Of a stretch of 64,000 nt of DNA, positions 579-1,306 are shown in pieces. Source of the stretch: Escherichia coli (GTDB lineage: Bacteria > Pseudomonadota > Gammaproteobacteria > Enterobacterales > Enterobacteriaceae). Position 1 is the stretch's first letter. The number at the start of each line of letters is the position of its first letter. The stretch is taken from the NCBI RefSeq assembly GCF_041248615.1, contig NZ_CP158426.1; one strand, written 5' to 3'. The notes below the pieces were generated by a model that was not told where the DNA came from, did not search any database, and worked only from the letters and a program-made list of their open reading frames with translations. The translations under genes were made by a program, and so were the position numbers.

Positions 579-794
579 TTAATCAGTAATTATGACATTT
601 GCTGCTGCAGGACCTTTAGCACCACTCTCTACAGAGAAGGTAACCTTTTGACCTTCAAATAAGGTTCGATAATTATCATTCTGAATCGCAGAAAAATGCA
701 CAAACACATCTTTACTACCATCAACAGGAGAAATAAAGCCAAAACCTTTATCAGCGTTAAACCATTTTACTAAACCAGTCATTTTATTTGACAT
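579..794 (-). CDS. cspB: CspA-family cold-shock protein (CspB-like, prophage-borne)
   Basis: 71 aa, [21 protein letters not shown]...VHFSAIQ cold-shock domain with RNP1/RNP2 motifs; matches recalled K-12 CspB. Confidence 0.9.
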
Positions 795-1093
795 TCTACA
801 TTCCTTAACTTGAGCCTTTCGGCATAAATGGCTTGTATAACAGAAACGACTTCGTACTTAATTGGAGAGACTCAAAGAAGGAATAAGTGAATAACACCTG
901 AAATGAGAACTGCTTTAGTAAACTACTTCGTATATCGTCTGTTCTTCAAACCGACGCAATCATTAACGCATAGTTGAACATATGAAGCAATGTTTATTTT
1001 AGACATCCAGCCATCTTCAACCCCATCAAAAAACTATAGCTTTCTTCAGGAACGTGTGTATAGTGCGCCAAGTTATCAGTATTAAGGAATTTT

Positions 1094-1306
1094 TTGTCCC
1101 GTAAAATGACAGGAATTCTCAAAACCTTTGACGGCAAAAGCGGCAAAGGTCTTATAACCCCATCCGATGGTCGTATCGATGTCCAGCTTCATGTTTCAGC
1201 GCTCAATCTCCGCGATGCAGAAGAAATTACCACCGGATTACGCGTGGAATTTTGCCGGATAAATGGTCTGCGTGGACCATCAGCTGCCAATGTTTACCTT
1301 TCATGA
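1094..1306 (+). CDS. cspF: CspF/CspH-like cold-shock-domain protein
   Basis: 70 aa, [25 protein letters not shown]...[17 protein letters not shown]; divergent partner of cspB as in the K-12 Qin prophage. Confidence 0.8.

Follow-up and report, generated by a model that had tools for sequence, protein, structure and literature searches.

Gene content of the csp locus

We analyzed a window of 64,000 nt from the Escherichia coli contig NZ_CP158426.1 (assembly GCF_041248615.1), in which two small cold-shock genes are transcribed away from each other near the left end, within a prophage. Positions are those of the window. Negative positions lie to the left of its first base and were taken from E. 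coli NRZ14408 (NZ_LT599825.1), whose sequence from 4611546 is 100% identical to window 1-1750. The features of the locus and of the prophage end are as follows:

45-215, + strand: ynfU, small zinc-ribbon protein gene, cargo between the holin gene and cspB
278-297, - strand: terminator-like hairpin and T-run following cspB on its own strand (consensus terminator scan)
516-955, - strand: cspB transcript unit, predicted by the Rfam cspA thermoregulator model RF01766 (5′ UTR, coding sequence and 3′ hairpin at 516-559)
579-794, - strand: cspB, encoding a CspA-family cold-shock protein of 71 aa
956-1093, no strand: divergent promoter region, with the putative cspB promoter just upstream of 955 (-)
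1094-1306, + strand: cspF, 70 aa, TTG start, CspF/CspH-type paralogue
1361-1450, + strand: ynfS-like small ORF, 29 aa (Pfam PF23697 YnfS, 70.1 bits; annotated in NZ_LT599825.1)
1600-1623, no strand: hairpin terminator, likely tR′, about 105 nt downstream of Q (terminator scan)
1624-1728, - strand: putative late promoter PR′ and Q-utilization region, between Q and tR′ (position and conservation)
1729-2481, - strand: late antiterminator gene Q, ydfT type (PF03589, 179.3 bits)
2495-3484, - strand: DUF968/HNH-like gene (PF06147, 271.8 bits)
18145-19362, - strand: prophage tyrosine integrase gene, 2H10 type (Pfam Phage_integrase and Arm-DNA-bind_3)
19592-19657, - strand: first 22 codons of prfC, at the prophage-chromosome junction, core ...ATTATTTCTCACCC

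A sequence-only reading of this DNA had placed a divergent cspB-like and cspF-like pair at 579-1306, and we recovered open reading frames at exactly 579-794 (-) and 1094-1306 (+). RefSeq names the pair cspB and cspF in the 100%-identical record NZ_LT599825.1. The cspB product scored 143.3 bits against the NCBIfam CspA subfamily (cutoff 130) and 108.9 bits against Pfam CSD (PF00313, cutoff 27), and its translation retains intact, aromatic RNP1 (KGFGFI) and RNP2 (VFVHF) motifs. It is separated from K-12 CspB by the single substitution I55V. CspF scored 158.4 bits for 1094-1306 against the CspF subfamily (NCBIfam NF012007, cutoff 111) and 74.1 bits against Pfam CSD (PF00313, cutoff 27), with V9L as the single difference from K-12 CspF. 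Its translation has KGLITP and VQLHV in the RNP1 and RNP2 places, the aromatic residues having been replaced, and CspF belongs to the CspA family by its fold only, not by aromatic RNP motifs. The gene has lost the aromatic residues for nucleic-acid binding and is dispensable, as the active phage Tritos has it only as a pseudogene. The K-12 genes cspF, cspH, cspI and ynfQ have been reported to be induced after replication inhibition (PMC11228462).

Proteins with the CSD fold also act in defence systems, and one could ask whether the two proteins act against phages in the manner of the CSD effectors found in type V / Se72 retrons. Consistent with this, NCBIfam retron_eff_Se72 matched CspB weakly, at 55.5 bits against a cutoff of 82, and PADLOC CSD_V returned E values of 1e-15 for CspB and 7e-5 for CspF. 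However, these sub-cutoff scores are explained by the shared CSD fold, neither a reverse transcriptase ORF nor an msr/msd-like RNA was found in 1-3000, and both proteins hardly differ from their K-12 counterparts. A defence role is hardly conceivable to us, and was ruled out on the sub-threshold scores together with the lack of a reverse transcriptase.

The match of the cspA thermoregulator model to 955-516 (-) (159.6 bits, gathering score 78, E 4.8e-43) covers the full model, 1-428, and for this reason we assign the cspB leader to the cspA type. As modelled, the 5′ UTR of cspB comprises 161 nt (795-955), a predicted length typical of cold-inducible csp genes. By extrapolation from K-12 cspB, whose leader is 98.8% identical, cspB would be expected to show thermosensing and cold induction. 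Of the 299 bp between cspB and cspF, the modelled cspB transcript, which starts at 955, leaves no more than 138 nt before the start codon of cspF at 1094. A -10-like TATAGT upstream of cspF, at 1051-1056 (+), is invariant across three diverged csp pairs, and the cspF leader counted from it is probably short, at about 30 nt. Thus, of the long 5′ leaders that had been ascribed to both genes, that of cspB was borne out by the Rfam match, but cspF has only 138 nt available and its leader is probably short. Conserved blocks within 956-1093 are common to the csp pairs of PHB10 and of K-12 cspG-cspH. A scan for the sigma-70 consensus was uninformative, as it returned 3 sites versus 5.9 in shuffled controls and missed the cspB promoter.

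The neighbouring genes are those of a lambdoid late region. The product of ynfU matched the NCBIfam YnfU family (79.8 bits) and Pfam PF23499 (107.7 bits). In phage SfV, the stretch that matches 1599-1750 bears annotated "terminator" and Q features, and 1624-1728 is conserved at 85-92% with other phages of the same Q type. Low-scoring hits to other Rfam families in 1-3000, namely a Phe leader, a Trp leader and two sRNAs (E 0.3-0.6), were rejected as chance, since they fall on two terminator hairpins and lie far under the gathering scores.

The prophage and its insertion in prfC

To the left of the window start, NZ_LT599825.1 carries essQ, a YdfR-family gene, the lysozyme gene rrrQ and an Rz-type gene between -174 and -2079, with the essQ holin at -389..-174, and lambda-like head and tail genes follow beyond the lysis genes. 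The pair had been described as lying between Q and the presumptive lysis genes; the order is correct, but the lysis genes themselves lie outside the window. Rightward of the DUF968 gene we found KilA-N, RusA and LexA-like genes, yfdN, a replication gene, ymfL and cro/cI-like genes, and further right yfdP-Q-R with an IS1 between yfdP and yfdQ, then IS1414 and a CHAT-domain gene. The right end is formed by the tyrosine integrase gene, which a BovA (Borvo) gene adjoins, followed by yjjG-rimI-holD. The prophage is lambda-like, truncated and decaying: it has been damaged by the IS1 and IS1414 inside it, its J-like tail gene is interrupted, and a Mu-like prophage fragment abuts its far end.

Integration of prophages at prfC has been documented (PMC3603311). 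The window follows K-12 yjjG-prfC base for base up to prfC codon 22 and then continues as the attP flank of Escherichia phage 2H10 (NC_049950, genus Glaedevirus), and the 66 nt at 19657-19592 (-) encode the first 22 residues of prfC. The insertion at prfC that had been read from the sequence is confirmed by this alignment with K-12 yjjG-prfC and 2H10 attP, which puts the junction at codon 22. The junction is a clean site-specific insertion in that codon. Phage 2H10 itself bears a surrogate prfC 5′ end.

Comparison with Qin

The Qin prophage of K-12 carries essQ-ynfU-cspB-cspF-ynfS-ydfT-ydfU in identical order and orientation, and the resemblance to Qin that had been asserted for the arrangement therefore holds from ynfU through cspB, cspF and ynfS to Q. 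In a BLAST comparison of the whole of Qin with the whole prophage, the matching DNA comprised -1615..-1072 (rrrQ, 89%), -593..2812 (93.7%) and two further weak matches, of 66-72%, to the nohA packaging-gene region of Qin. The 3.4-kb block at -593..2812 takes in the 3′ part of ydfR, essQ, the cargo, Q and the 3′ third of ydfU; the homology with Qin ydfU stops at 2812, inside the DUF968 gene (2495-3484). The Qin early region (rem, hokD, relBE, flxA, dicABCF), its toxin-antitoxin genes and intQ gave no DNA match anywhere in the prophage.

The common gene order from ynfU to ydfT/ydfU and the 93.7% identity over 3.4 kb are what one would see if Qin had relocated to prfC, as a whole element or through a chromosomal rearrangement. 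This explanation was ruled out by the whole-prophage BLAST and is barely credible, since the Qin early region and intQ have no DNA similarity here, the integrase and attP flank match those of 2H10, the junction is a site-specific insertion in prfC codon 22, and a prophage of the window's type is found at this site in E. coli O55:H7 CB9615 too. Collinearity with Qin is only local, and the claim that the genes belong to a different prophage stands. Qin also differs in sitting in the ydfJ-rspB region instead of prfC, and in having cspI-ynfQ-ynfN-gnsB after Rz, a block that the window prophage lacks.

Within the shared block, identity to Qin follows a gradient. The nucleotide identity to K-12 is 98.8% for ynfU, 98.6% for cspB, 98.8% for the cspB leader, 99.3% for the promoter region 956-1093 (the most conserved segment of the block) and 97.7% for cspF, and the flanks are more diverged than this csp core, at 91.4% for Q (against K-12 ydfT) and 85.5% for ydfU. 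Synonymous changes relative to Qin affect 6 of 141 codons in cspB and cspF together and 41 of 251 in Q (Fisher p = 0.0003). The low divergence of the csp genes fits either a more recent exchange of the cargo or a stronger constraint on codons or mRNA structure.

Related phages and prophages

Comparison with the right 20 kb of phage 2H10 gave seven blocks of 87-98% identity, about 12 kb in total, including the following:

-730..4064: 95.6%, late block with the csp cargo
4494-5754: 96.9%, RusA, LexA-like gene and yfdN
6932-7527: 86.7%, ymfL region
10403-10989: 97.8%, yfdP region
11758-14412: 95.9%, yfdQ, yfdR and downstream genes
18129-19634: 94.4%, integrase and attP

Window 1-1750 is 98.0% identical to 2H10, in which two genes annotated as cold shock proteins likewise lie between Q and the holin gene. 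Because its integrase, attP flank, early genes and csp cargo all match 2H10, the window prophage can be classed, by sequence similarity, as a 2H10-like element. The two are not the same: 2H10 is an apparently complete sequenced phage and keeps a cspI-like gene and gnsB after Rz, whereas the window prophage has the IS1 and IS1414 insertions and the BovA (Borvo) gene next to int, and has no cspI block. A prophage of the same type occupies the yjjG/prfC site in E. coli O55:H7 CB9615, and the protein accessions of CspB, CspF, Q, DUF968 and the KilA-N protein are identical between CB9615 and NRZ14408.

Tritos (prophage 3 of E. coli LF82) is an active Qin-like phage with the arrangement Q-(cspF)-cspB-S-ydfR-R-Rz-cspI. 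It differs from the window prophage in that cspF is frameshifted and 257 bp are deleted (window-equivalent 1297-1553, including ynfS), and its early region and integrase are of the Qin type, not the 2H10 type. CspB and CspI of Tritos have been published as morons expressed in the lysogen, and in the LF82 lysogen transcriptome they stood 59-fold (CspB) and 93-fold (CspI) above the local prophage background (PMC9928086). In PHB10, a diverged homologous divergent csp pair is found elsewhere, between umuDC and an SOS-peptidase/integrase.

The Q-S cargo slot

The csp genes occupy the classic lambdoid Q-S "moron" slot, a position confirmed by Q at 1729-2481, the terminator at 1600-1623 and essQ at -389..-174. 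The contents of this slot vary between prophages. In the E04 prophage at argU, homology covers the lysis genes up to window -170 and resumes in the Q region from 1646, and a slot of 3.3 kb with a DNA methyltransferase gene and two other genes replaces window -169..1645. The breakpoint at -170 lies four bases from the holin start codon. DETEC-S586 carries a porin in the slot, and further prophages carry other genes. Prophages with the same Q lose homology at 1596, 1599 or 1646, at or just past the hairpin 1600-1623, and this terminator, predicted to be tR′, marks the right edge of the variable cargo.

We assessed the distribution of the module in a set of 5426 complete E. coli genomes. In 1410 of them, about a quarter, 80% or more of window 1-1750 was present, and in only 129 was it joined to 2H10-type DUF968/KilA-N genes; among the remaining matches listed, the Qin-type ones end at 2809-2812. 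The exact 11.2-kb combination around the module was found in NRZ14408 only.

These data bear on the proposal that the csp module moves between lambdoid phages as a cassette. It was upheld in so far as the genes are cargo of an exchangeable slot, but what is shared is a 3.4-kb block, and the cargo has no recombinase of its own. The unit in common with Qin is not the csp pair alone, since the block includes the holin gene, Q and the 3′ third of ydfU. In the full-length matches seen, all of which have the same Q type, we found no instance of the same cargo beside a Q or holin gene that clearly belongs to another family. That the cargo moves by itself, apart from its flanks, is shown only indirectly, by the slot replacement and by the diverged PHB10 pair in a different location.

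A stronger version of the proposal would make the csp pair an autonomous mobile element that enters phages by itself, in the manner of a transposon or integron. It would find some basis in an imperfect direct repeat (250-297 versus 1579-1622; about 47 nt) that contains a terminator and brackets cspB-cspF-ynfS. This was the sole flanking repeat, and the hairpin at 278-297 sits in one of its copies. The diverged csp pair in a different slot of PHB10 points the same way. However, the ORF list for the cargo (-169..1645) contained no recombinase or transposase, the repeats are short and two-copy families often arise by chance, and the breakpoints fall at the holin start codon and tR′/PR′, as homologous exchange predicts. 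In addition, a search with the predicted empty-site chimera (..297 joined to 1623..), in which ynfU would directly adjoin tR′, revealed no single-piece, cassette-less form among the best 25 matches; all of these were two-piece matches that still carried cspB/cspF, with a spacing that fits the Tritos 257-bp deletion (210 genomes). We therefore consider autonomous transposition very unlikely.

The reading that best accounts for the locus is that cspB-cspF, together with ynfU and ynfS, very probably form a moron module in the Q-S slot of a 2H10-like prophage in prfC. Lambdoid phages would recombine in the conserved Q and holin-endolysin genes, so that the contents of the Q-S interval may pass between phage backgrounds, and ordinary lambdoid mosaicism is the most economical mechanism.

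Expression and function of the csp module

As a moron, cspB would be a self-contained unit with its own promoter, the 161-nt leader, the coding sequence and terminators. Its own promoter would drive expression while the prophage is repressed, and a drop in temperature would induce the gene through the thermosensing leader; both expectations draw on the near-identity of the cspB coding sequence and leader to those of K-12 cspB. CspB may add a CspA-type RNA chaperone to the pool of the host, and transcription of cspF would run the other way out of the same 299-bp region, its leader probably being short. After prophage induction, polymerase modified by Q and starting just left of Q would pass tR′, and late read-through would then run antisense across ynfS and cspF and sense across cspB, into the holin gene, a route that the geometry of the region suggests. 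The population counts, the breakpoints of the mosaic, the junction in prfC, the match of the leader to its RNA family and the gene identities are observed, and we infer cold induction, the promoter positions, the functions of PR′ and tR′ and a benefit to the host. Since cspB points the same way as the late operon, it might conceivably also be expressed to some degree in the lytic cycle and be of use to the phage.

Alternatively, the module may serve the phage itself, with CspB made from the late transcript aiding late-gene transcription and translation in the cold through RNA melting or antitermination. The orientation of cspB, which is that of the late operon, and its location directly downstream of Q/tR′ would suit such a role, as would the retention of the module in the virion-forming phages 2H10, Tritos, PhiR42_1, PhiR63_1 and HannyBb and the presence of a second csp gene, cspI, after Rz in 2H10, Tritos, CB9615 and Qin. 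Bae and colleagues are said to have found, in 2000, that CspA-family proteins act as transcription antiterminators, which we also counted in its favor. On the other hand, cspB has its own leader and terminators, its Tritos homologue is strongly transcribed in uninduced lysogens, and the window prophage has lost cspI. Furthermore, prophages with similar late regions carry unrelated cargo, so the csp genes are not needed for late expression. A benefit to the phage is thus an unlikely primary explanation; it is compatible with the moron module described above, and possible, but unneeded to explain the data.

The cspH-cspG locus

The chromosomal genes cspH and cspG form a divergent pair that is homologous to this one, its intergenic control region included, with about 78% nucleotide identity over window 680-1302, and they share leader and promoter blocks with the window pair. 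Their locus differs in lying outside any recognizable prophage, with cspG followed directly by ymcF-ymcE-gnsA. Some match to window 1-1750 occurred in 5382 of the 5426 genomes, and in 3806 of 5479 matching records the cspH-cspG locus was the only one.

We found that K-12 cspH(-)|cspG(+)-ymcF-ymcE-gnsA matches two separate parts of Qin: the region of Qin from cspF through the intergenic region to the 5′ region of cspB aligns with the cspH/cspG locus at 75.9%, and the Qin cspI-ynfQ and gnsB regions align with the cspG locus at 73-74%. We then analyzed cspG at those sites that are fixed within, and different between, the cspB-type and cspI-type genes of four phages/prophages. From -170 to +70, with the whole leader included, cspG is cspB-like at 66 of 78 sites, and from +71 onward it is cspI-like at 51 of 68 (Fisher p = 1.5e-13 for this split, the best of 140 split points).

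Phages of the Qin, Tritos and 2H10 types have the lysis cassette flanked by two csp paralogues in the same orientation, with cspB located 5′ of the holin gene and cspI after Rz.

Recombination between cspB and cspI would delete the lysis genes, which are lethal, and cspH-cspG-ymcF-ymcE-gnsA may be such a product, a reading suggested by the cspB-like 5′ part of cspG joined to a cspI-like 3′ part. We regard its chances as evenly balanced. If true, one portion of the "core" E. coli cold-shock regulon would be a domesticated late region of lambdoid type, of which the window module would be the still-mobile form. The cspG result, if it is upheld and proves new, would tie a core stress-response locus to prophage domestication. 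Full-text literature on cspG, cspH or gnsA as a prophage relic yielded incidental mentions only, and the older subscription literature may differ.

Comparison with known systems

The finding of cspB and cspF at this position is ordinary and already known. The genes and their location in Qin are part of the K-12 annotation, the leader is an Rfam family, the same configuration occurs in 2H10, a phage that is annotated and classified, and in 129 or more E. coli genomes, and both the moron status (PMC9928086) and prfC as an attachment site (PMC3603311) have been published. Full-text literature on cspB, cspF and Qin contained incidental mentions only. The locus is a tidy, quantified example of lambdoid mosaicism, with one cargo in two phage backgrounds and a slot sharply bounded by the holin start codon and tR′/PR′. 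It also means that some strains may have cspB and cspF solely through the prfC prophage.

Among known systems, the closest likeness is to the Q-S moron slot that holds stx in Stx phages and nmpC in DLP12. There, as here, the cargo lies downstream of Q/PR′/tR′ and upstream of the holin gene, carries its own regulatory signals and is replaced by alternative cargoes in otherwise similar prophages. The locus described here differs in that its cargo is a pair of stress proteins, not a toxin or a porin, and in that cspF opposes late transcription.

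The cspB-cspF-ynfS segment

The segment carrying cspB, cspF and ynfS is flanked by the two copies of an imperfect direct repeat, TATTTAAAGCA...AAAAACCCGC...AGCGGGTTT, each of which ends in a terminator hairpin. This repeat could be a scar of the segment's entry into the cargo slot between Q and the holin gene, or it could have arisen by chance.

250-297, imperfect direct repeat, first copy
1579-1622, imperfect direct repeat, second copy
Phage Tritos OV696610 40293-40967 (16294-16968 in locus L013), cspF frameshift and deletion region
K-12 NC_000913 1050963-1052240 (4964-6241 in locus L016), chromosomal cspH-cspG-ymcF-ymcE-gnsA, outside the window

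In Tritos, which forms virions, cspF carries a frameshift and 257 bp including ynfS are missing. A chimeric query was built by joining the window up to 297 to the sequence from 1623 onward. In 210 E. coli genomes its two halves matched with a spacing of about 1,066 bp, as the 257-bp Tritos deletion predicts. It follows that cspF and ynfS are dispensable.

K-12 cspG is cspB-like at 66 of 78 informative sites up to nt +70 and cspI-like beyond this point (51 of 68 sites; p = 1.5e-13). Recombination between cspB and cspI in a Qin-type late region, with loss of the lysis cassette, would appear to have produced the chromosomal cspH-cspG-ymcF-ymcE-gnsA locus. Queries with window 1-1750 and 1-4300 matched a single place in the source record NZ_LT599825.1, unlike most genomes, in which cspG-cspH was a second matching place. 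Strain NRZ14408 may have neither a Qin-borne csp copy nor a cspH-cspG locus detectable by megablast.

The host prophage and its other variable regions

11045-11742, IS1 copy inside the prophage
14485-15693, IS1414 copy inside the prophage
15879-18011, minus strand, CHAT-domain protein adjoining the integrase gene, identified with PADLOC (801 bits) as BovA from the Borvo anti-phage system
19560-19660 (about 640-760 in 2H10 locus L011), prfC junction and attP flank
-2079 to -4000 equivalent (16000-17900 in source-record locus L001), post-Rz region left of the window

The prophage contains IS1 and IS1414 copies and is probably defective. In the source record left of the window (locus L003), a second IS1414 breaks its J-like tail gene, and its far end borders not on prfC but on a Mu-like prophage that is truncated. 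Since Dsr1 in the related O55:H7 CB9615 prophage occupies the position equivalent to that of BovA, the site next to int is a defence-gene hotspot.

In its attP flank the phage carries a surrogate 5′ end of prfC coding for 21 residues; the junction core is approximately ATTATTTCTCACCC. In SXT-type elements, restoration of the prfC reading frame by an element-borne 5′ end has been described; by analogy, integration here would presumably restore an intact prfC frame at the opposite junction.

The region after the lysis genes is a second variable cargo slot: Qin, Tritos, 2H10 and CB9615 carry cspI-ynfQ-ynfN-gnsB downstream of Rz, whereas in the window prophage this place is taken by hypothetical genes together with a TonB-fragment gene.
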